Assembly: GCA_902799835.1 (NCBI GenBank)
Contig: CADCCF010000002.1
Span: 7,338-71,337 of the forward strand
DNA: 64,000 bases
DNA from: an uncultured Pseudomonadota bacterium
Lineage (GTDB): Bacteria; Pseudomonadota; Alphaproteobacteria; RF32; CAG-239
Direction of reading: 5' to 3'
Made by a program: the position numbers and the translations under genes. The notes under the pieces are model-generated. The model worked only from the letters and a program-made list of their open reading frames with translations. It was not told the DNA's origin and did not search any database. Within the stretch, counting starts at the first letter, position 1. Each line of letters begins with the position of its first letter. This document shows, one piece after another, positions 3,238 to 43,238 of the stretch.

Positions 3238-4512
3238 ATGAATAATAATATAGATGAAAAACAAAATATTTCCGAAAACGACCATCGTCGTATCGGTAAG
3301 GAACTGGACTTATTTTCTTTTAGTGATTATGTAGGATCCGGATTGGCTTTGTGGCATCCCAATGGCGCAATCATTAGAGGCGAAATAGAATCTTTTTGGA
3401 AAAAAGAACATCAAAAAGCCGGCTATAAATATGTCTATTCTCCGGTTGTCGGATTAAAACAGCTATGGGAAAAATCCGGTCATTTGGATCATTTTGCCGA
3501 CTGTATGTATCCGCCGATGGATATGTCCTTAAAGGATAAAGAAGAACAGGGGGCTTATTATGTTAAGCCGATGAGCTGTCCTTTTCATGTGGCAATTTAT
3601 AATGCTTCCGTACATTCATATAAAGAACTTCCGATTAAATATTGTGAACTTGGAAATGTTTATCGTTATGAAGCATCTGGCGGTCTGCAAGGACTATTGC
3701 GCGTTCGTTGCATTACGCAAGATGATGCGCATATTATCTGTCGTCAAGATCAGTTTATGGAAGAGCTTTCAAAGGTTTTGGACTTTGGTTTTGCTTTCAA
3801 TAAAGTCTTTGGCTATGATAAGTTTAAAGTATACTTTTCCATTCGTGATTTAAAAAACAAAAAGGATAAATATATTGAAAACGAGCCCGTTTGGCAAATG
3901 GCCGAGCAAGCGATAGAACAAGTCTTAAAAGACAAAAAACTTCCATATGATATAGATGTCGGAGGAGCAAAATTTTACGGACCGGCCATTGATGTCAAAG
4001 CCGTAGATGAAAATGGCAAGGAATGGCAATGTATGACGATTCAACTGGATATGAATTTGCCGGAAAAATGGGGAATGTCTTATATCGGTGAAGATGGTCA
4101 AAAGCACGTGCCGATTATGTTGCACCGCGCCATTTTAGGATCATTGGAGCGTTTTATCGGCGTATATTTGGAAAGATGCGAAGGTAAATTGCCGGTTTGG
4201 TTGTCACCGATTCAGGTCAAAATTTTACCGGTATCGGACAGGCACCAAGAACAAGCTCTGCAAATTCAAGAACAGCTACTGGCACAAGATATACGTGCTG
4301 AAGCTGATTTATCCAGCAATACGATTTCGTATCAAATCAGAAATGCGGTTAAAAAGAAAATTCCTTATGTTATTGTGATAGGAGACAAAGAAATTGAAAA
4401 TAATCATGTTTCTGTCAGATTGCGTAATGGTGAACAATTAGACGACATTCCGCTTGCTGATTTTATGAAACGTGTATCCGCAAAAATAAAAAACAAAAGT
4501 ATAGATTTGTAA
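3238..4512 (+). CDS. thrS: Threonyl-tRNA synthetase catalytic core plus anticodon-binding domain only (424 aa). The N-terminal TGS and editing domains are absent.
   Basis: Aligns with E. coli ThrRS from about residue 236 (DHRRIGKELDLF vs DHRKIGKQLDLY) through the C-terminus. Class II motifs are present: PMSCPFH, YRYEASGGLQGLLRVRCITQDDAHI and HRAILGSLERFIGVYLE. An in-frame upstream stop prevents N-terminal extension. Confidence 0.85.
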   Translation: MNNNIDEKQNISENDHRRIGKELDLFSFSDYVGSGLALWHPNGAIIRGEIESFWKKEHQKAGYKYVYSPVVGLKQLWEKSGHLDHFADCMYPPMDMSLKDKEEQGAYYVKPMSCPFHVAIYNASVHSYKELPIKYCELGNVYRYEASGGLQGLLRVRCITQDDAHIICRQDQFMEELSKVLDFGFAFNKVFGYDKFKVYFSIRDLKNKKDKYIENEPVWQMAEQAIEQVLKDKKLPYDIDVGGAKFYGPAIDVKAVDENGKEWQCMTIQLDMNLPEKWGMSYIGEDGQKHVPIMLHRAILGSLERFIGVYLERCEGKLPVWLSPIQVKILPVSDRHQEQALQIQEQLLAQDIRAEADLSSNTISYQIRNAVKKKIPYVIVIGDKEIENNHVSVRLRNGEQLDDIPLADFMKRVSAKIKNKSIDL

Positions 4513-6911: not shown

Positions 6912-6987
6912 GGTCGGGACGAGAGGATTCGAACCTCCGACTTCTTGCACCCCATGCAAGCGCTCTACCAGACTGAACTACGTCCCG
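6911..6987 (-). tRNA. tRNA-Pro, anticodon GGG.
   Basis: Minus-strand sequence CGGGACG TA GTTC AGTCTGGTA GAGC G CTTGC ATGGGGT GCAAG AAGTC GGAGG TTCGAAT CCTCT CGTCCCG A CCA. It has a C1:G72 pair, A73, G37 and an encoded CCA. Confidence 0.85.
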
Positions 6988-7110: not shown

Positions 7111-7479
7111 TTATTTTTTCATAACCGACTTAGCATCAATTTCGGTTCCGTTTTTATCCTTGTCAACTTCACCCAAAATTATAACTTCATCAGTCTCGGT
7201 GATAGTGTTTCCACCCCATGCTTCCGATTCGATTTCGACAATTACAGTGCCGGTCGAATCCGCCAATTGATATTTATCACCTTTAACTTGATTGGTAATT
7301 TTTCCTGATACTTTAACCGGAGTGTCATCTTCCATCACCAAAACTTCAGCAATAGTGTTAACCGGCATGGCAGTATTTTGATAGCCGCCCCCCTTGTGGT
7401 GCTTTCCGGCATTGGCAACTGACAAACAGGCGAATCCGGCAATCAGTGTTAAGCTCATGATATACAATATTTTTCTCAT
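7111..7479 (-). CDS. Periplasmic YgiW/YdeI (BOF, bacterial OB-fold) family protein.
   Basis: Signal peptide followed by the characteristic KVSGKITNQV...KYQLADSTGTVIVEIE OB-fold pattern. Confidence 0.65.
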   Translation of the reverse strand: MRKILYIMSLTLIAGFACLSVANAGKHHKGGGYQNTAMPVNTIAEVLVMEDDTPVKVSGKITNQVKGDKYQLADSTGTVIVEIESEAWGGNTITETDEVIILGEVDKDKNGTEIDAKSVMKK

Positions 7480-7824: not shown

Positions 7825-7873
7825 ATACTATATCTAGTATATTTACTTTTTGTTAAGACTATATATTGTATGT
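7825..7873 (+). promoter_or_regulatory. Two NrdR-box-like 16-bp palindromes with centres 32 bp apart, upstream of nrdD.
   Basis: ATACTATATCTAGTAT at 7825-7840 and ACTATATATTGTATGT around 7858-7873. They are compared with the NrdR-box consensus (acaCwAtATaTwGtgt) from established knowledge. Confidence 0.4.
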
Positions 7874-7933: not shown

Positions 7934-9994
7934 ATGACTAAAGCAACCGCAAAAAATTCATCTGCCGCCGAAGAAAATATCGGCATCGCTCAAATTTCAA
8001 AACGCGATGGTACATTGGCTCCTTTCGATTCAGAGAGAATCTTTAATGCTATTAACAAAGCAGGTTCTGCCACCAAAGAATTTGATGAGGATGAAAGCCG
8101 TCTGTTAACCGCTCAGGTTTTGAAGGTTTTGAAACATAAGTTCTCTGCAAAAAATTTGCCTTCAATCGAACAAATTCAAGATATTGTTGAGCAGGTTTTG
8201 ATTTCGGCTAACTATTTTAACACCGCCAAGGCCTACATTTTGTATCGTGACCAACGCACCCGCGTTCGCCAAGACAACAAAGTTATGGTTGATGTTGAGA
8301 GTTCGGTTAATGAATATTTGGAAAAGTTGGATTGGCGTATTAATGAAAATGCCAACCAAGGTTATTCCAATGGTGGATTGATTTTGAATGTTGCCGGTAA
8401 GGTAACTGCCAATTATTGGTTGAGCCATGTTTATCCGGCAGCTATCGGTGAGGCTCACCGCAATGGTGATTTTCATATCCATGATTTGAGCATGTTGGCA
8501 GCTTATTGTGCCGGTTGGTCATTAAAGAATCTTCTTCATGAAGGTTTTAACGGAGTTCCCGGCAAAGCTGAGGCTGGACCGGCCAAACACTTAAGTGCCG
8601 CAGTTGGTCAGATGGTTAACTTTATGGGTACTTTGCAAAATGAGTGGGCGGGAGCTCAGGCTTTTTCATCAGTTGATACCTATCTTGCTCCTTATGTTCG
8701 CAAAGATAAATTGTCATATAAACAAGTATATCAGAGCATGCAGGAATTGATTTATAACTTAAACGTTCCTTCTCGTTGGGGTTCACAAACACCTTTCACT
8801 AACTTCACTTTCGATTGGGTTTGTCCGGAAGATTTGCGTGATAAACATCCTTTGATTGCTGGTGTTGAACAAGACTTCACCTATGGCGATTTAAAAGACG
8901 AGATGCACATGATTAACAAAGCCTACATCGAAGTTATGATGAAAGGCGATACCAAAGGTCGTCCGTTTACCTTCCCGATTCCCACCTATAATATGACACC
9001 TGATTTTCCGTGGGAAGACGAAAACACTGAATTGTTGTTCGAAATGACCGCCAAATACGGCTTGCCTTATTTCCAGAACTTTATCAATTCTGTATTAAAA
9101 CCCGGTCAAATTCGTTCAATGTGTTGCCGTCTGCAATTAGACTTGCGCGAATTGTTGGCTCGCGGCAACGGCTTGTTTGGCTCGGCTGAACAAACCGGTT
9201 CAATTGGTGTTGTTACCATCAACTGCGCTCGTTTGGGCTATGTTTACAAAGGCAACGAAGCCGGTCTTTATGCTCGTTTGGATGAATTGATGGATATGGC
9301 CAAGGTATCCTTGGAAATCAAACGTAAACTCATTCAGCGCCTGATTGACCAAGGATTATTCCCTTATACCAAACGTTATTTGGGAACTTTACGCAACCAC
9401 TTCTCAACCATTGGTGTTAATGGCATCAACGAGATGATTAGAAACTTCACCAATGATGAACACGAAATTGCCGATGAATGGGGACAAGCTTTTGCTGTTA
9501 AATTCTTGGATTATATTCGCGATCGTTTGGTCAAAATTCAAGAAGAAACCGGTCATATGTATAACCTCGAAGCCACTCCGGCTGAGGGTGCAACAACTCG
9601 TTTTGCCCGTGAAGATAAAAAACGTTTTGCTGACATTATCCAAGCCGGTCCGAAAGAGAATCCTTTTTATACCAATTCATCACAGTTGCCGGTTGGCTAC
9701 ACCGATGATCCGTTTGAAGCTTTGGAATTACAATCAACTCTTCAAACCAAGTACACCGGAGGAACCGTGTTGCACCTTTACATGGGACAGCGTATTTCCT
9801 CAGCCAAAGTTTGTCGCGACATTGTAAAACGTGTTTTGACAAACTACCGGTTGCCTTATGTTACCATCACCCCGACTTTTTCCATTTGCCCAAAACATGG
9901 ATATATCTCGGGAGAACATAAATACTGCCCGATTTGTGATGAAGAAAAGAAGGCAGCAAAAAGAGCCGCAGCATCAAGAAAAGATGTTGCTTAA
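7934..9994 (+). CDS. nrdD: Anaerobic ribonucleoside-triphosphate reductase large (catalytic) polypeptide with an N-terminal ATP-cone. The glycyl-radical motif is not in this ORF.
   Basis: ATP-cone ISKRDGTLAPFDSERIFNAINKAG and a class III RNR body. It ends in a Cys/His cluster CPKHGYISGEHKYCPIC. The start was set at the internal ATG 7934 of track ORF 7850. Confidence 0.85.
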   Translation: MTKATAKNSSAAEENIGIAQISKRDGTLAPFDSERIFNAINKAGSATKEFDEDESRLLTAQVLKVLKHKFSAKNLPSIEQIQDIVEQVLISANYFNTAKAYILYRDQRTRVRQDNKVMVDVESSVNEYLEKLDWRINENANQGYSNGGLILNVAGKVTANYWLSHVYPAAIGEAHRNGDFHIHDLSMLAAYCAGWSLKNLLHEGFNGVPGKAEAGPAKHLSAAVGQMVNFMGTLQNEWAGAQAFSSVDTYLAPYVRKDKLSYKQVYQSMQELIYNLNVPSRWGSQTPFTNFTFDWVCPEDLRDKHPLIAGVEQDFTYGDLKDEMHMINKAYIEVMMKGDTKGRPFTFPIPTYNMTPDFPWEDENTELLFEMTAKYGLPYFQNFINSVLKPGQIRSMCCRLQLDLRELLARGNGLFGSAEQTGSIGVVTINCARLGYVYKGNEAGLYARLDELMDMAKVSLEIKRKLIQRLIDQGLFPYTKRYLGTLRNHFSTIGVNGINEMIRNFTNDEHEIADEWGQAFAVKFLDYIRDRLVKIQEETGHMYNLEATPAEGATTRFAREDKKRFADIIQAGPKENPFYTNSSQLPVGYTDDPFEALELQSTLQTKYTGGTVLHLYMGQRISSAKVCRDIVKRVLTNYRLPYVTITPTFSICPKHGYISGEHKYCPICDEEKKAAKRAAASRKDVA

Positions 9995-10037
9995 GAACCG
10001 AATTTATATTATAATAACAACCACTGGAGAAAAAAGA

Positions 10038-10256
10038 ATGACAACTATTAATTTTGAAGACATTAAATTGAGCGATGAAGAGAGACAACCTTGTGAAGTA
10101 TGGACAAGAGTTATGGGTTATCTTCGTCCTTATTCTGAGTTCAATGTAGGCAAAAAGTCTGAATTTGATTCGCGTGTTTGCTTCTCAGAACTCAAAGCAG
10201 TTAATGGCTGCGCTTGTCATTGTGAATGTGATGTTGAAGCTATTGCGGCAGAATAA
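10038..10256 (+). CDS. Small 72-aa protein carrying the NrdD-type glycyl-radical loop (TRVMGYLRP) and a Cys-rich tail. It is the separately encoded C-terminal piece of NrdD.
   Basis: Own SD GGAG 9 nt upstream of ATG 10038 and 43 nt after the nrdD stop. Sequence MTTINFEDIKLSDEERQPCEVWTRVMGYLRPYSEF...CACHCECD. Confidence 0.65.
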   Translation: MTTINFEDIKLSDEERQPCEVWTRVMGYLRPYSEFNVGKKSEFDSRVCFSELKAVNGCACHCECDVEAIAAE

Positions 10257-10263
10257 TTAACTA

Positions 10264-10968
10264 ATGAATAATTCAAAAATTGTAGTCGGCGGCGTTGAGA
10301 AATTCAGCGCCGTTGATTTTCCCGGGGTATTAAGTGCTGTAGTGTTTATGCAAGGATGCCCGTGGAAATGCCCTTATTGCCACAATGCCTCTATCCGAGA
10401 AATATTGAAAGAAAACAGCTTTTCATGGGAGAAGTTTGTTGATTTTTTACGCAAAAGGGTGGGGCGATTAGATGCCGTAACTTTTTCCGGCGGTGAGCCT
10501 TTGGTGCAGGATTGTTTGGGCGATGCTATTAAGGAAGTTAAAGAGTTAGGATTTAAAATTGGATTGCATACCGGAGGTTATCGTCCGGAGCATTTGGCTA
10601 AAATATTACCTCTGGTCGATTGGGTCGGCTTAGATATAAAGGCACCTTTTGATGAGGCAAAATATCAGGCAATTATCAGGGTTAATCATCTGAAAAAAGT
10701 TGAAGATAGTTTAGATTTGTTGCTTCAATGGGGCGGTGATTTTGAATGTCGCACCACTTGTGATCCGCGGTTCTTAAGTATTGAAGATTTATGGGTAATC
10801 GCTAAAACCTTAAAAGAAAAGGGTGTAAAAAAGTATTTTCTGCAAAAATATCGTCCGGTTGAAAGTGATAAAACCAGCACTGATGATATGTGTGAAAGGT
10901 TAGTTAGCGATTCGGGATTGTTGAAGTATTTGCAAGAAAATTTTGAGAATTTTGAAGTTAGGAAATAA
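10264..10968 (+). CDS. nrdG: Anaerobic ribonucleotide reductase activating enzyme (radical SAM).
   Basis: CPWKCPYCHN radical-SAM cluster motif with a glycine-rich SAM site FSGGEPL. Position is right after nrdD. Confidence 0.85.
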   Translation: MNNSKIVVGGVEKFSAVDFPGVLSAVVFMQGCPWKCPYCHNASIREILKENSFSWEKFVDFLRKRVGRLDAVTFSGGEPLVQDCLGDAIKEVKELGFKIGLHTGGYRPEHLAKILPLVDWVGLDIKAPFDEAKYQAIIRVNHLKKVEDSLDLLLQWGGDFECRTTCDPRFLSIEDLWVIAKTLKEKGVKKYFLQKYRPVESDKTSTDDMCERLVSDSGLLKYLQENFENFEVRK

Positions 10969-11133
10969 ATCAGCTTTTTTACAATATATTAACTACAATA
11001 ACACTAATATATTAAACGATTTTGAGAATACAGAGTCGCTTTTTTGTTGCAATTTAGACAAAAATATGCTACAAATAAAGAAGACATGGATTTTTGATGT
11101 CAAATCTAACGCAATATTTTAAGGAGAAAAGTC

Positions 11134-11808
11134 ATGATTACAAATGAAGATGCTGCTAGATTATTTGAACAACCGACCATCGAAGCCATCCCTAGTGATA
11201 TGAAACGTATTATAATTCCGGCTTACGGATTTGCTGGAGCTAAAGATGCAAAGAGGCAAGAATGGGGTGCTGATGGTCCGTTTATGGAAGATGTTAAAGG
11301 TCTTGTTTTCAAGAATCCTAAGGATGATGCTGATCAAGTATTAAAACAAGGCGATGGAGTTTTGATTTGTTATGATGCCCCTGGTCGCAAAGAGAAAATT
11401 GAACAATATTTGAAAGATAATCCGTCCACCTTTATGACCGCAGGACAAGTGCAAAGGTTTATTGATTATTTGACTACAAATGTTGTTAATGAAGGTGGAA
11501 AAGCTGATTTATGGGATTCAGACTTAGCTTTTGCTTCTGGATTAAAAGATGCACCAGCGAAAGAAGAAATGAAACCGGGAATGGTTTTCACCGGAGTTAA
11601 GAAAAAGGAAGCTGTTCAAGCTGTGTTTGTTAAAGAGGGAGTACAGTTTGAAGGAGCTGAGGGTAAACCCCAAACTGCTGGTAAGGATGGAGCATATATA
11701 ATTAAAGATAGTGCCGGATTAAGAATGATTCAAAAAGCCGAGTTTGCCAAGGCTTATCAAATTACCAAGATACCTCCGGTTCAATCAAATGACAAAGTCA
11801 GAGGTTAA
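11134..11808 (+). CDS. Hypothetical soluble protein (224 aa).
   Basis: SD AAGGAG upstream. A terminator follows. Confidence 0.55.
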   Translation: MITNEDAARLFEQPTIEAIPSDMKRIIIPAYGFAGAKDAKRQEWGADGPFMEDVKGLVFKNPKDDADQVLKQGDGVLICYDAPGRKEKIEQYLKDNPSTFMTAGQVQRFIDYLTTNVVNEGGKADLWDSDLAFASGLKDAPAKEEMKPGMVFTGVKKKEAVQAVFVKEGVQFEGAEGKPQTAGKDGAYIIKDSAGLRMIQKAEFAKAYQITKIPPVQSNDKVRG

Positions 11809-11850: not shown

Positions 11851-13014
11851 TTAAGCACACAGTTCTTCGGCTAACTTTTCCAATTGGGCTAAATCAGCTT
11901 TTTTCATAGCCGATTTGATAGTTATTTTATTTTCGCAAAATGTCAGATTTTTGCAACCTTCCAAAGCCTCACACATTTTTTTTGCTGCCATTGGTGCCCA
12001 AGATCCGTTTTCAATCAAACCGACTTGGCGATTCTGATAATTTTTATCACGTAATTGAGCAATAAAGTTTTCCATCTGCGGCATCATGCCGGCATCATGG
12101 GTGGAACTGGCTAAAACCAAGCGATCATACCGAAAAGCATCTTCCACTGCTTCAGCCATATCTTCACGTGCCAAATCGGTAATAGCCGCTTTTTCTCCTT
12201 TTGCTTCCAACATTTCTTTCAGTTTTAATGCCGCGGCTTTAGTGTGTCCATAAATTGAAGTATAAGCAATAAATATACCTTTGTCTTCCGGCTCATAACT
12301 ACTCCAAATATTATATTTGTTTAGATAATAATCCAAATTTTCGGTCAGCATCGGACCATGCAGAGGGAATATTTTTTGAATATCAAGATTAGCCGCTTTT
12401 TTCAAAACATTCTGTACTTGAACTCCGTATTTGCCGACAATATTGAAATAATAGCGGCGTGCTTCACAAGCCCAATCTTCATCCGTGTCCAAAGTGCCAA
12501 ATTTACCGAATGCATCAGCTGAGAACAAAACTTTGTCCTTTTTATCATAGGCAAACATGACTTCCGGCCAATGCACCATCGGTGCGGCAATAAAAGATAA
12601 TTTATGTTCACCCAAATCCAATTCAACGCCTTCTTTGACTTCAATTTTGCGATTCGTCACATCCAAATTTTCAAAAAATTGCTCTAATAGGGCAAAACTT
12701 TTGGCGCTGGAAACCATTTTCGCCTCAGGATAGGCTTCCATAAATTTAGCAATATTGGCGGCATGATCCGGTTCCATATGCAAAACAACCAGATAATCCG
12801 GTTTTTTATCGCCCAAAACCGCTTGCAAATTGGCAAACCATTCTTGCGTAACTCGTTTATCAGCAGTATCAACAATTGCAATCTTCGTATCTTTAATTAC
12901 ATAGGAATTATAAGTTATCCCGTTGGGAACAATATATTGCCCCTCAAATAAATCGAGAGTTTTATCGTCCACGCCGATATAAAAAATATCGTTGGTTAAT
13001 TGGATATTTTGCAT
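11851..13014 (-). CDS. Flavodiiron protein (metallo-beta-lactamase-like plus flavodoxin domains; rubredoxin:oxygen / NO reductase type).
   Basis: HMEPDH di-iron motif and a C-terminal flavodoxin-like domain. The start is at ATG 13014 with SD AAGGA, which avoids overlap with cysS. The track ORF extends to 13062. Confidence 0.8.
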   Translation of the reverse strand: MQNIQLTNDIFYIGVDDKTLDLFEGQYIVPNGITYNSYVIKDTKIAIVDTADKRVTQEWFANLQAVLGDKKPDYLVVLHMEPDHAANIAKFMEAYPEAKMVSSAKSFALLEQFFENLDVTNRKIEVKEGVELDLGEHKLSFIAAPMVHWPEVMFAYDKKDKVLFSADAFGKFGTLDTDEDWACEARRYYFNIVGKYGVQVQNVLKKAANLDIQKIFPLHGPMLTENLDYYLNKYNIWSSYEPEDKGIFIAYTSIYGHTKAAALKLKEMLEAKGEKAAITDLAREDMAEAVEDAFRYDRLVLASSTHDAGMMPQMENFIAQLRDKNYQNRQVGLIENGSWAPMAAKKMCEALEGCKNLTFCENKITIKSAMKKADLAQLEKLAEELCA

Positions 13015-13046
13015 GAGTTTTTCCTTTTTTGATTCAAATATTATTT

Positions 13047-14414
13047 TTATATTTTTTTCCAAGTAGTTCCGGTCGAGGAATCTTCCAAAACAATACCTTG
13101 AGCCTTCAGGTCATCACGAATTTTGTCGGCCAAAGCAAAATTTTTGTTCTTTTTAGCTTCTTTGCGCTCAGCTATCAATTTTTCAATTTCTTGAGCTTCG
13201 TCAGTCGATTCGCCTTTAAACCAAATTGAAGGATCTTGATATAGCAAACCCAGCAATTCGGCCGATGCCAACAGCAAAGATTTTTTATCCATCATACTTT
13301 TTTCATCAGAAGCTTTATTCAAATCACCGACCAATTCATGAATATAGCTCAAAGCCAGTGGTGTGTTAAGGTCATCTTCCAAAGCTTTTACTACTCTTTC
13401 ATCAGGTGCAACATCTTGCTTAGCAATGTCCTTAACCCGCAACAAAGCATTATAAAATTTATCCAAAGTTTGTTTTGCTGCTTCCAAGCCGTCAAAAGTA
13501 AAGTTGAACGGTTGGTGATAATGTGTCGTTAAAAAAGTCAAACGCAAAGCTTCGGCAGGTACCTTGTCCAAAATCTGGTCAATAGTATAAAAATTACCCA
13601 AAGATTTTGACATTTTAACCCCGTTAACCATCAGCATACCGCCATGAACCCAATAATGAGCAAAGTCATCATTAGGGTGGGCACACATTGATTGAGCACA
13701 CTCATTTTCGTGGTGCGGAAATATCAAATCAGAGCCGCCACCATGAATATCAAACGAATTGCCCAACAATTTTGCGCTCATTGCCGAACATTCCAAATGC
13801 CAACCCGGACGACCAAACCCCCAAGGGCTGTTCCACCCCGGTTGAGTTTCATCAGATGGCTTCCATAACACAAAATCTTCCGGATTCTTTTTGTAATCAG
13901 CGACTTCGATTCGTGCCCCTGCCAACATCTCTTTGCGTGAACGTTTGGATAAAAATCCGTAGTTTGACATCGATTCTACATCAAACAAAACATGACCTTT
14001 TGCTTCATAGGCATGACCGTTTTTGATTAATAATTCTACTAATTCAATCATCTCATTGATATACTCGGTTGCCTTGGGGCGGTGGTTGGGTGGCAAAACA
14101 TTCAGCCGTGCCATATCATCTATATACCACTGATAAGTCTGCTCGGTAATTTCCTTAATCGATTTTCCGGTAGCAATAGATTTGTTGATAATCTTATCAT
14201 CAATATCTGTAATATTGGAAACATAAGTCACATGCTCTTTGCCGTATATATGACGTAACAAGCGGTATAAAATATCAAATACCACCGGTGTTTTAATGTT
14301 TCCCAAATGAGCATGGTCATAAACTGTCGGACCGCATACATACATTCTGACATTATTTGCGTCAATCGGCTTAAACTCTTCTTTTAACCCGCTTAATGTA
14401 TTAAAAATTTGCAT
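13047..14414 (-). CDS. cysS: Cysteinyl-tRNA synthetase.
   Basis: HLGN (HIGH-type) and KMSKS motifs. Confidence 0.92.
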   Translation of the reverse strand: MQIFNTLSGLKEEFKPIDANNVRMYVCGPTVYDHAHLGNIKTPVVFDILYRLLRHIYGKEHVTYVSNITDIDDKIINKSIATGKSIKEITEQTYQWYIDDMARLNVLPPNHRPKATEYINEMIELVELLIKNGHAYEAKGHVLFDVESMSNYGFLSKRSRKEMLAGARIEVADYKKNPEDFVLWKPSDETQPGWNSPWGFGRPGWHLECSAMSAKLLGNSFDIHGGGSDLIFPHHENECAQSMCAHPNDDFAHYWVHGGMLMVNGVKMSKSLGNFYTIDQILDKVPAEALRLTFLTTHYHQPFNFTFDGLEAAKQTLDKFYNALLRVKDIAKQDVAPDERVVKALEDDLNTPLALSYIHELVGDLNKASDEKSMMDKKSLLLASAELLGLLYQDPSIWFKGESTDEAQEIEKLIAERKEAKKNKNFALADKIRDDLKAQGIVLEDSSTGTTWKKI

Positions 14415-42113: not shown

Positions 42114-43238
42114 ATGAATTGGTTAATTAACACAATATATTATGTCGTCCCGTTTTTAGTCGTACTCGGAGTATTGGTTTTTGTTCACGAGTTCGGACAT
42201 TATTTAGTAGCAAAACTTTGTGGGGTTAAGGTCGCTGAATTTTCTATCGGTTTTGGCAAACAATTATGGGGTAAATATGACAAATCAGGTACATTGTGGA
42301 AGCTGTCAGCAATTCCCTTAGGCGGTTATTGTAAATTTTTGGGAGATGATGATGCTTCATCTTCAACCAGCAAGGAAGAAGATTTGTCAGATGAAGACAA
42401 AAAATATGCTTTTGCTTATCAAAATCCGTTTAAAAAATTGGCAATCGTGATTGGCGGTCCGGGGTTCAACTACCTGTTTGCTATTTTGGTATTTTTTGGT
42501 ATTTTTGCTATTCTTGGCAAAATGGATTTTCCTCCGGTCATTGGAACAGTGCTGGAAAACAGTGCCGCTCAAGAGGCAGGAATTTTGCCCGGTGATCGGG
42601 TTTTGAGTGTGGATGGTATAGAGATCAAAACCTTTCAGGAGTTCAGACAGGAAATTGAGATGAATACCAGCGGCACCTCGGCAATCAAGTTACGCCGTGG
42701 TGAAGATGTTTTGGATGTGAATGTCCATCTGAAACTTATTGATGATGAAGCATCCGGTGTCAAAACAACCAAGCCGGTTGTCGGGGTTACTTCGGTAAAC
42801 AATATTGAATTCAGCCCGATAAAATTGTCATTGGGTGAAGCATTAAAGGAATCATTCAGTGAGACTTGGCGTATAACTACCATGACTTTGCGAGGGGTTT
42901 ATCAGATGATAACCGGTGCACGGGGAACCGAAGACTTAGGCGGTATAGTGCGCATTGCCGAAATGAGCGGCGACATATCAAAATCAAATTCATGGATAGA
43001 TTTGTTGGTATTTACGGCTTTATTGTCAATTAATTTGGGCTTGATTAATCTTTTTCCGATACCGGTTTTAGATGGTGGTCATGTTGTAATCTTTTTAATT
43101 GAAATAGTAATAAGACGTGAAATTAATGAAAAAGCCAAAGAATGGGTTTTCAAATTTGGCTTTGCTTTGTTGATAGCATTAATGTTTTTTGCTACATACA
43201 ATGACATTATTCACCTTATTAAAAGATGGTTTTCTTAA
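42114..43238 (+). CDS. rseP: RIP zinc metalloprotease RseP (site-2 protease).
   Basis: HEFGH zinc motif, a PDZ domain and LDGG. Confidence 0.88.
   Translation: MNWLINTIYYVVPFLVVLGVLVFVHEFGHYLVAKLCGVKVAEFSIGFGKQLWGKYDKSGTLWKLSAIPLGGYCKFLGDDDASSSTSKEEDLSDEDKKYAFAYQNPFKKLAIVIGGPGFNYLFAILVFFGIFAILGKMDFPPVIGTVLENSAAQEAGILPGDRVLSVDGIEIKTFQEFRQEIEMNTSGTSAIKLRRGEDVLDVNVHLKLIDDEASGVKTTKPVVGVTSVNNIEFSPIKLSLGEALKESFSETWRITTMTLRGVYQMITGARGTEDLGGIVRIAEMSGDISKSNSWIDLLVFTALLSINLGLINLFPIPVLDGGHVVIFLIEIVIRREINEKAKEWVFKFGFALLIALMFFATYNDIIHLIKRWFS

Follow-up and report, generated by a model that had tools for sequence, protein, structure and literature searches.

Canonical class III ribonucleotide reductases, such as those of E. 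coli, phage T4, T. maritima and N. bacilliformis, consist of a single-chain NrdD and of NrdG, a radical S-adenosylmethionine (SAM) activase encoded next to it. The locus described here comes from an uncultured Pseudomonadota bacterium and lies on a stretch of 64,000 nucleotides (nt) of contig CADCCF010000002.1; this whole stretch is referred to as the window, and all coordinates are positions in it. The fold, the domains and the adjacent activase are the same as in the canonical enzymes, and the finger loop carries the MCCR variant of the SCCR motif of NrdDh. The glycyl hairpin, in contrast, is separate and is encoded by a small gene between nrdD-large and nrdG; the large chain has gained an 18-residue helical tail and the small chain a 19-residue leader. 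The three genes very probably specify a functional, obligate two-chain class III ribonucleotide reductase, produced from one operon with separate translation starts, in which NrdG would generate the radical on Gly27 of the small chain.

To our knowledge, the radical glycine of characterised glycyl-radical enzymes is always located on the catalytic polypeptide, and GrcA (YfiD), the partner of pyruvate formate-lyase (PFL), is the only free-standing glycyl domain known. The small protein of the window is similar to GrcA in being a small stand-alone carrier of the predicted radical glycine, and orphan copies of its gene (described below) recall the genomic independence of GrcA. However, GrcA is paralogous to the C-terminus of PFL and restores full-length PFL after its cleavage by oxygen, whereas the protein considered here is of the NrdD type and is encoded inside an nrdDG operon. 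Formate lyases are considered the only class of glycyl-radical enzymes with known spare-part proteins (2026 review, PMC13450708).

Ribonucleotide reductases encoded in pieces have been described in two other settings. The class II reductase NrdJa/NrdJb of Pseudomonas aeruginosa is specified by a pair of successive open reading frames (ORFs), with the C-terminal module on the second chain; in the secondary account available (Crona et al. 2015, via PMC9669993), it differs in being adenosylcobalamin-dependent and in having no glycyl radical. In phages, the coding sequence of nrd genes may be spread over more than one ORF, as with the intron of T4 nrdD, the Aeh1 nrdA split by a homing endonuclease and the nrdD fragments of phiAS4 (Dwivedi et al. 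2013, PMC3653736). The phage cases consist of sporadic introns, inteins and endonuclease genes at various positions, whereas here no mobile element is present and the break stands at a fixed domain boundary in many bacterial species.

Two reading frames covering one NrdD

The operon and its elements are as follows.

7934..9994, + strand: nrdD-large, catalytic subunit of 686 amino acids (aa) with ATP-cone, ten-stranded barrel and zinc ribbon, without glycyl-radical loop
7991..8260, + strand: ATP-cone domain, residues 20-109 of nrdD-large (Pfam PF03477, E 5.6e-24)
9119..9130, + strand: finger-loop motif M396-C397-C398-R399 (MCCR), a sequence motif; signature of RNRdb2 NrdDh group 4 according to PMC4493059
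9887..9937, + strand: zinc-ribbon-type cluster C652-x2-H655 ... C665-x2-C668 of nrdD-large, a sequence motif
9938..9994, + strand: C-terminal tail of nrdD-large, DEEKKAAKRAAASRKDVA, with the TAA stop; motif D-[AE]-E-x-[IL]-A-x-K, predicted helix
9995..10037, + strand: spacer of 43 nt with the Shine-Dalgarno sequence GGAG at 10026-10029
10038..10256, + strand: small subunit, glycyl-radical hairpin protein of 72 aa (Pfam NRDD, family profile and conservation)
10116..10118, + strand: codon of Gly27, the predicted radical-bearing glycine, aligned with Gly621 of T. maritima NrdD
10209..10229, + strand: Cys/His-rich tail C58-A-C-H-C-E-C64 of the small subunit, a sequence motif whose position is not conserved
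10264..10968, + strand: nrdG, radical-SAM activase of 234 aa (NCBIfam TIGR02495, Pfam Radical_SAM and Fer4_12)
11017..11038, + strand: terminator-like hairpin followed by a T-run, 3' of nrdG (consensus scan)

The large ORF runs from an ATG at 7934 to a TAA at 9992-9994 and ends in ...SICPKHGYISGEHKYCPICDEEKKAAKRAAASRKDVA, 18 residues past the zinc ribbon; the RVxGY motif is absent from its sequence. The small ORF begins with an ATG at 10038, terminates with a TAA at 10254-10256 and specifies the 72-aa protein MTTINFEDIKLSDEERQPCEVWTRVMGYLRPYSEFNVGKKSEFDSRVCFSELKAVNGCACHCECDVEAIAAE. It is read in frame +1 relative to nrdD, and the GGAG sits 8 nt 5' of its ATG, a translation signal independent of that of the large gene. 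The start of nrdG follows 7 nt past the end of the small ORF, and the order nrdD-large, small gene, nrdG is head to tail on the + strand. A preliminary description of this DNA had stated that the large ORF ends after a Cys/His cluster without RVxGY, and that a 72-aa ORF with a GGAG of its own follows after a gap of 43 nt; both statements are borne out, and its coordinates 7934-10256 are correct. The hairpin at 11017-11038 is probably the end of the three-gene operon. No terminator-like hairpin, intron or intein was seen in the 43-nt spacer. An Rfam search of the whole window returned two tRNAs only, so that no RNA family lies in the spacer; a Pfam search gave no Hint or endonuclease domain, and no mobile element was found between the coding pieces.

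The homology of both ORFs to class III reductases is complementary. The Pfam family NRDD (PF13597, 562 profile positions) is matched by the large ORF at positions 1-532 (E 2.6e-179) and by the small ORF at positions 531-562 (E 6.8e-08; 32.1 bits, cut-off 26.2), and two such complementary matches are not expected by chance. The large ORF also reaches 1126 bits against NCBIfam NF006126 'ribonucleoside triphosphate reductase' (cut-off 548) and 485.9 bits against TIGR02487 (cut-off 326), and nrdG is recognised as a dedicated radical-SAM activase by TIGR02495, NrdG2 (198.7 bits, cut-off 131.15). When the two ORFs are aligned to solved structures, the large one covers residues 104-612 of T. maritima NrdD, ending at the zinc-domain sequence CPVCGKAK, and residues 17-48 of the small-family profile fall on residues 613-645 (VDEYMRIVGYLVPVSAFN...), with G27 on Gly621. 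Because the two parts map to 104-612 and 613-645, the break lies exactly between the zinc ribbon and the glycyl hairpin. Against PDB sequences, the small protein alone gives chance matches only, and the family profile is required for this alignment. Gly621 is the radical glycine of T. maritima NrdD (PMC4493059).

The small subunit would represent the remainder of the canonical C-terminal glycyl-radical domain, namely a beta-hairpin with Gly27 at its tip and a short following segment. The RVxGY motif, which in class III enzymes is carried by the catalytic polypeptide, occurs here as RVMGY on the separate 72-aa ORF; the zinc-ribbon Cys cluster expected ahead of the glycyl loop is present in the large ORF, in the region of the zinc domain of solved NrdDs. 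The SCCR finger-loop motif defines subclass NrdDh, and its MCCR variant is typical of group NrdDh4 (PMC4493059). Judging from M396-C397-C398-R399, the present enzyme can be assigned to RNRdb2 subclass NrdDh, group 4. NrdDh belongs within the NrdD2 type of Wei et al. 2014, of which the studied member uses thioredoxin.

Residue conservation was followed in concatenated large and small pairs from the loci (alignment A2) and in the concatenated query with 31 natural fused homologues (alignment A4). Gly27 is invariant in both and also in alignment A1, and the invariant or near-invariant residues of the small subunit are E15, R16, C19, E20, W22, T23, R24, V25, M26, G27, Y28, R30, P31, N36, G38, K39, E42, R46 and F49. 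In the large subunit, C192, C397 and C398 as well as the whole MCCR motif are invariant in A2 and A4, and C652, H655, C665 and C668 are invariant or nearly so. The position of Cys19 varies in a few relatives: it is moved two residues later in L064, P0147 and P0225 (QPVECW) and is duplicated in L063 and L074 (TPCECW). The shifted Cys keeps the thiol on the same face of the strand leading to the glycyl loop.

Single-chain relatives of the same enzyme also occur. Among the best 120 matches of a profile search with concatenated pairs, 44 are natural single-chain proteins (694-757 aa) and 76 are split large subunits (671-701 aa). In the 44 fused proteins, the linker, measured from the CxxC to the W of the hairpin, comprises 6-50 residues. 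Fused forms with a short linker resemble ordinary NrdD (CPQCGSACEVWTRVMGY), and long linkers retain both the tail of the split large subunits, D-x-E-x-L-x-x-K, and the leader of the split small subunits, I-x-L-x-D-x-E-R-x-x-C-E-x-W. One contig of the window's clade (L101:2851-5124) encodes a 757-aa single-chain NrdD, P0390, which reads CPICDEDLILEKEK-MTTINFED...; its DNA has lost the large tail and the stop codon, and the former TGGAG and ATG of the small gene are read through in frame. P0390 is probably the product of a recent re-fusion; an assembly error would be another possibility. A midpoint-rooted neighbour-joining tree of large subunits, built with no outgroup, weakly suggests that one fused species locus is nested among split ones. 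Since fused and split forms are evolutionarily interchangeable, the small protein performs the function of this enzyme's own C-terminal glycyl hairpin.

Structure prediction is in line with this. With AlphaFold, the small protein alone adopts no confident fold (predicted local distance difference test, pLDDT, 63; predicted template modelling score, pTM, 0.30), and the concatenated large and small chains, modelled with the 31 natural fused homologues, give a pLDDT of 72.9 and a pTM of 0.68. In the concatenated model, residues 20-25 and 28-31 of the small chain pair into a beta-hairpin that turns at M26-G27 (block-mean pLDDT 73-88), and the tail of the large subunit forms a helix (666-682). The top Foldseek matches of this model are all class III ribonucleotide reductases. 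It fits these predictions that the small subunit folds on docking to the large one.

According to the proposed mechanism, nrdD-large, the small gene and nrdG would be co-transcribed, and the small ORF would be translated from its own Shine-Dalgarno sequence and ATG. NrdG, using SAM, would abstract a hydrogen from Gly27 of the small subunit, whose hairpin would lie inside the large subunit's barrel and face the finger loop, the position that it has in single-chain NrdD. The glycyl radical would then give rise to a thiyl radical and to the start of nucleotide reduction. By the NrdDh subclass, the reductant would probably be a thioredoxin-type system and not formate.

Several points weigh against this interpretation. 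The association of the two chains and the formation of the radical on the small one are deduced from sequence, and the thioredoxin reductant follows from a subclass assignment in the literature. When its profile is compared with solved structures, the small protein scores poorly (E 0.08) on account of its shortness, and the argument is carried by motif identity. The structural model was obtained from artificially concatenated chains and is of moderate quality (pLDDT 72.9, and below 50 in the finger loop). Finally, the window covers 64 kb, and a second, full-length NrdD may be encoded elsewhere in the genome.

Distribution of the two-gene form

The identical 72-aa protein is encoded on 20 metagenome contigs. 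At the six of these loci that are shown, a 686-aa NrdD precedes it (one is cut by the contig end), a 234-aa NrdG follows it, and the flanking genes differ between strains. Divergent relatives of about 70% identity, P0102 (64 aa) and P0086 (70 aa), have the same three genes in unrelated neighbourhoods. In an alignment of the junction DNA of eight relatives, the stop codon of nrdD is kept and the spacer diverges in sequence and in length (24-43 nt); GGAG persists 7-10 nt upstream of the ATG, and both coding flanks show synonymous changes.

Homologues of the small protein number 458 in a database clustered at 90%, and the best 120 are all 47-111 aa long. In a library clustered at 50%, 1416 clusters are found at E <=0.001; the best 150 measure 54-153 aa, three of them being contig-edge fragments of fused forms. 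The protein search with the large subunit covered homologues of at least 90% identity only. A scan for the peptide WTRVMGYxR, with one genome per species, identified at least 599 genomes, of which 80 species genomes were kept for the locus statistics. Taxa with the peptide include gut Alphaproteobacteria (the window's clade), Afifella, Martelella, Sutterella, Castellaniella, Massilia, Duganella, Herminiimonas and Trinickia, and also metagenome-assembled genomes labelled Actinobacteria, Coriobacteriia, Elusimicrobiota and Acidobacteria.

The large nrdD ends just upstream as a separate ORF in 58 of the 80 loci. Two further loci, L085 and L088, are also split, with their parts in different tblastn frames; one (L091) is fused through an 11-residue linker, 14 have the small gene alone, L041 has the large gene on the opposite strand, and four lie at contig ends. 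For the 57 loci with an assigned small start, the relative frame is 0 in 21, +1 in 13 and +2 in 23, the gap between the ORFs ranges from -4 (an ATGA overlap) to 235 nt, and a Shine-Dalgarno-like motif precedes the small start in 51. Large subunits are 64-83% identical across phyla, and their catalytic Cys residues are invariant. Judged by this conservation, the split is kept under selection across many species of several phyla. The preliminary description had proposed a class III reductase with the glycyl-radical peptide encoded as a separate gene, perhaps as a fixed fission, and had asked whether relatives share the split; tiling and conservation across species support the proposal, and many species in several phyla have the same arrangement.

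The arrangement is also present in well-known bacteria. A tblastn search of plasmids and chromids detected the small protein in 161 records (Ralstonia 132, Bradyrhizobium 7, Cupriavidus 5, Paracoccus 4, others), and a query spanning the fused junction matched 163 such records, nearly all in two pieces; a two-piece match across the junction indicates a split gene. C. necator H16 carries on pHG1 a 676-aa 'ribonucleoside triphosphate reductase' (H16_RS32680), followed by a 66-aa 'nrdD' (H16_RS32675) and by nrdG (H16_RS32670). In R. solanacearum, the small gene (58 aa) overlaps the large one by ATGA and is annotated as 'hypothetical protein' or is absent from several annotations. Bradyrhizobium and Azospira have the same layout, and Paracoccus gives a two-piece match. 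The split is no local oddity but the usual arrangement in a large subfamily of NrdD, with model bacteria among its members. It has been reported that the nrdDG locus of pHG1 is essential for anaerobic and denitrifying growth of H16 (PMC2864759). The genome paper of C. metallidurans CH34 (L098) names NrdDG as Rmet_5137 and Rmet_5139 and skips the intermediate tag (PMC2864759); the skipped tag is probably the small gene and an example of oversight.

The literature on the phylogeny of ribonucleotide reductases, on subclass NrdDh and on split phage nrd genes does not mention this arrangement. No published account of a bacterial NrdD whose glycyl domain has a gene of its own was found in the accessible literature, which included few subscription journals, so that an earlier one is possible. 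The two-gene NrdD is new with respect to the literature searched, and it is common in sequence databases, where automatic annotation has already labelled it in part. For annotation, a large subunit without the small gene should not be scored as a complete NrdD, and small ORFs are worth keeping. The small gene, often unannotated or 'hypothetical', is easily lost in cloning and knock-out designs, and this concerns studies of how Cupriavidus, Ralstonia, Paracoccus and Bradyrhizobium grow anaerobically and denitrify, as well as studies of gut Alphaproteobacteria and Sutterella.

Alternative explanations and a possible exchange of the small chain

Two ORFs in different frames, 43 nt apart and with A-runs at both sides of the junction, could suggest a sequencing or assembly frameshift in a gene that is really continuous, and the fused 757-aa P0390 is known from the same clade. 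The probability of such an error is nevertheless minimal. The layout is the same at the six loci shown, among 20 contigs with the protein, and the split persists in many species, in every frame relation and with gaps from -4 to 235 nt; were the ORFs joined, some 50 residues of linker would result, and a Shine-Dalgarno site and a Met would lie inside it; moreover, P0390 is a deletion derivative found on a single contig. Independent assemblies and conservation across species therefore remove the worry about a frameshift. Strong purifying selection acts on both parts across phyla (64-83% identity in the large subunit, an invariant core in the small one), relatives retain the start codon and the Shine-Dalgarno site of the small ORF, and C. 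necator H16 reportedly depends on a locus of this layout for anaerobic growth (PMC2864759). This makes it highly improbable that the locus is a decaying pseudogene, composed of a truncated nrdD and a remnant downstream ORF, even though the radical motif, the defining mark of an active NrdD, is missing from the large ORF. Recoding, by programmed frameshift, stop read-through or protein splicing, would yield one fused polypeptide, and the separate small protein would not be the working form. In its favour, the frame of the small ORF is open upstream into nrdD in the window (a 132-aa ORF, 9858-10256), and 21 of the 57 loci have both ORFs in the same frame with a stop between. However, the frame relation is not fixed, as 0, +1 and +2 are all found; several loci have ATGA overlaps, and no conserved slippery site was seen among them. 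The conserved element is GGAG with the ATG and not the rest of the spacer, the gap holds no intein, Hint domain, intron or RNA family, and the tail and the leader measure merely 18 and 19 residues. Recoding is accordingly very unlikely.

A further alternative is that the small protein is a spare only, of the GrcA type, which rescues a full-length NrdD encoded elsewhere, the large ORF of the window not being its regular partner. The 64 kb of visible genome leave room for such an enzyme, and orphan copies exist. Indeed, in 14 of the 80 loci an intact small gene, mostly with a Shine-Dalgarno-like motif, has no nrdD-large or nrdG within 1.4-4 kb on each side, and an orphan small gene annotated nrdD is found on plasmid pALVIN01 of Allochromatium vinosum. 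The spare-only explanation is still improbable. The small gene lies in a conserved layout between a loop-less large subunit and its activase, in fused relatives this very sequence forms the C-terminal end of the same large subunit, and the protein has no match to the PFL-type Pfam family Gly_radical at E <=0.01, NRDD being its sole match; a PDB sequence search gave no PFL or GrcA either. The partner of GrcA has a glycyl domain of its own and the grcA gene lies away from the enzyme operon; in contrast, the large ORF encoded here has no glycyl loop and the small gene is placed between nrdD-large and nrdG. Because it offers the sole glycyl loop available in the operon, the small protein is taken to be an obligate subunit and not a spare. 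The likeness to GrcA drawn in the preliminary description holds by analogy, and it fails in that the protein is of the NrdD type, not of the PFL type, and is the only glycyl loop of its operon.

The orphan loci are the following.

L027, L038, L039, L040, L043, L048, L050, L053-L057, L072 and L086: small gene near position 4000
L097:3486-3695: small gene, also an orphan

In the metagenome-assembled genome CALXXX01, an orphan (L048) is found alongside a copy within the operon (L064). The orphans might have had a hidden, divergent catalytic partner, but this idea was given up: the large genes next to them lack an NRDD domain and show no consistent homology. By analogy, the orphan copies are compatible with a spare-part system and make a GrcA-like role plausible in addition to that of obligate subunit. 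A tentative extension of the two-chain enzyme is that the small chain acts as an exchangeable radical cartridge: NrdG would activate it, oxygen would cleave it at Gly27, the 8-kDa chain would be replaced, the 77-kDa catalytic subunit would be used again, and the orphans would serve as spares. This is possible, though on balance doubtful. If true, ribonucleotide reduction would join pyruvate formate-lyase as a case of the GrcA principle, and this would be the first glycyl-radical enzyme with a natively dissociable radical-site subunit. A separate gene for the radical site alters the way in which NrdG activation and repair after oxygen damage are thought of, and the two chains provide a natural two-piece system for studying the exit of a glycyl domain from the barrel and its re-entry.

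Cysteine tails, candidate control sites and neighbouring genes

The CACHCEC cluster noted in the preliminary description is present in the small ORF, but it is not a conserved feature of the family. A role as redox shuttle or metal site is conjectural. Among 57 non-redundant split pairs, 27 have at least two Cys residues in the C-terminal tail of one subunit (the small one in 21, the large one in 6), and none has them on both. Cys makes up 4.3% of the residues in tails versus 1.55% in the body, and the pairs occur as CxC and CC. Class I and class II reductases have C-terminal redox-shuttle cysteines, which these Cys pairs recall. The tails with Cys pairs, present in about half of the split pairs, might act as a thioredoxin-facing redox shuttle; we know of no such shuttle in enzymes of the NrdD2 type.

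Chain ends are uniform in the gut alphaproteobacterial clade (P0001-P0120, P0269-P0388), where the small subunit ends in AAE in 103 of 120 cases and the large one in VA in 120 of 120. The residues just ahead of these ends are variable; in the window, the ends correspond to 10245-10253 and 9986-9991, respectively.

Upstream of the operon, two AT-rich palindromes resembling NrdR boxes are located at 7825-7840 (ATACTATATCTAGTAT) and 7856-7871 (AGACTATATATTGTAT), 31 nt apart and 63-109 nt before the ATG of nrdD. The scan used a consensus that we take to be that of the NrdR box. The window holds three matches with at most three mismatches, 0.28 being expected, and two of the three stand side by side upstream of nrdD; the third, at 42130, lies inside an ORF and was taken as a chance match. 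The palindromes at 7825-7871 are candidate repressor sites and tentatively point to control of the operon by NrdR.

Further upstream, a tRNA gene (6914-6987, - strand) and a secreted protein of the BOF family (bacterial OB-fold; 7111-7479, - strand) have no evident link to the operon. Downstream of nrdG, a 224-aa ORF (11134-11808, + strand) has no Pfam or NCBIfam match, and sister strains have at this site an unrelated 369-aa ORF, likewise without a Pfam match. Next to the operon, 11851-13062 (- strand) encodes a flavodiiron-type protein with metallo-beta-lactamase, ODP and flavodoxin domains. Flavodiiron-type proteins are a class of O2/NO reductases, and since such a gene adjoins the operon, it is suggested that the host meets oxygen or nitric oxide.

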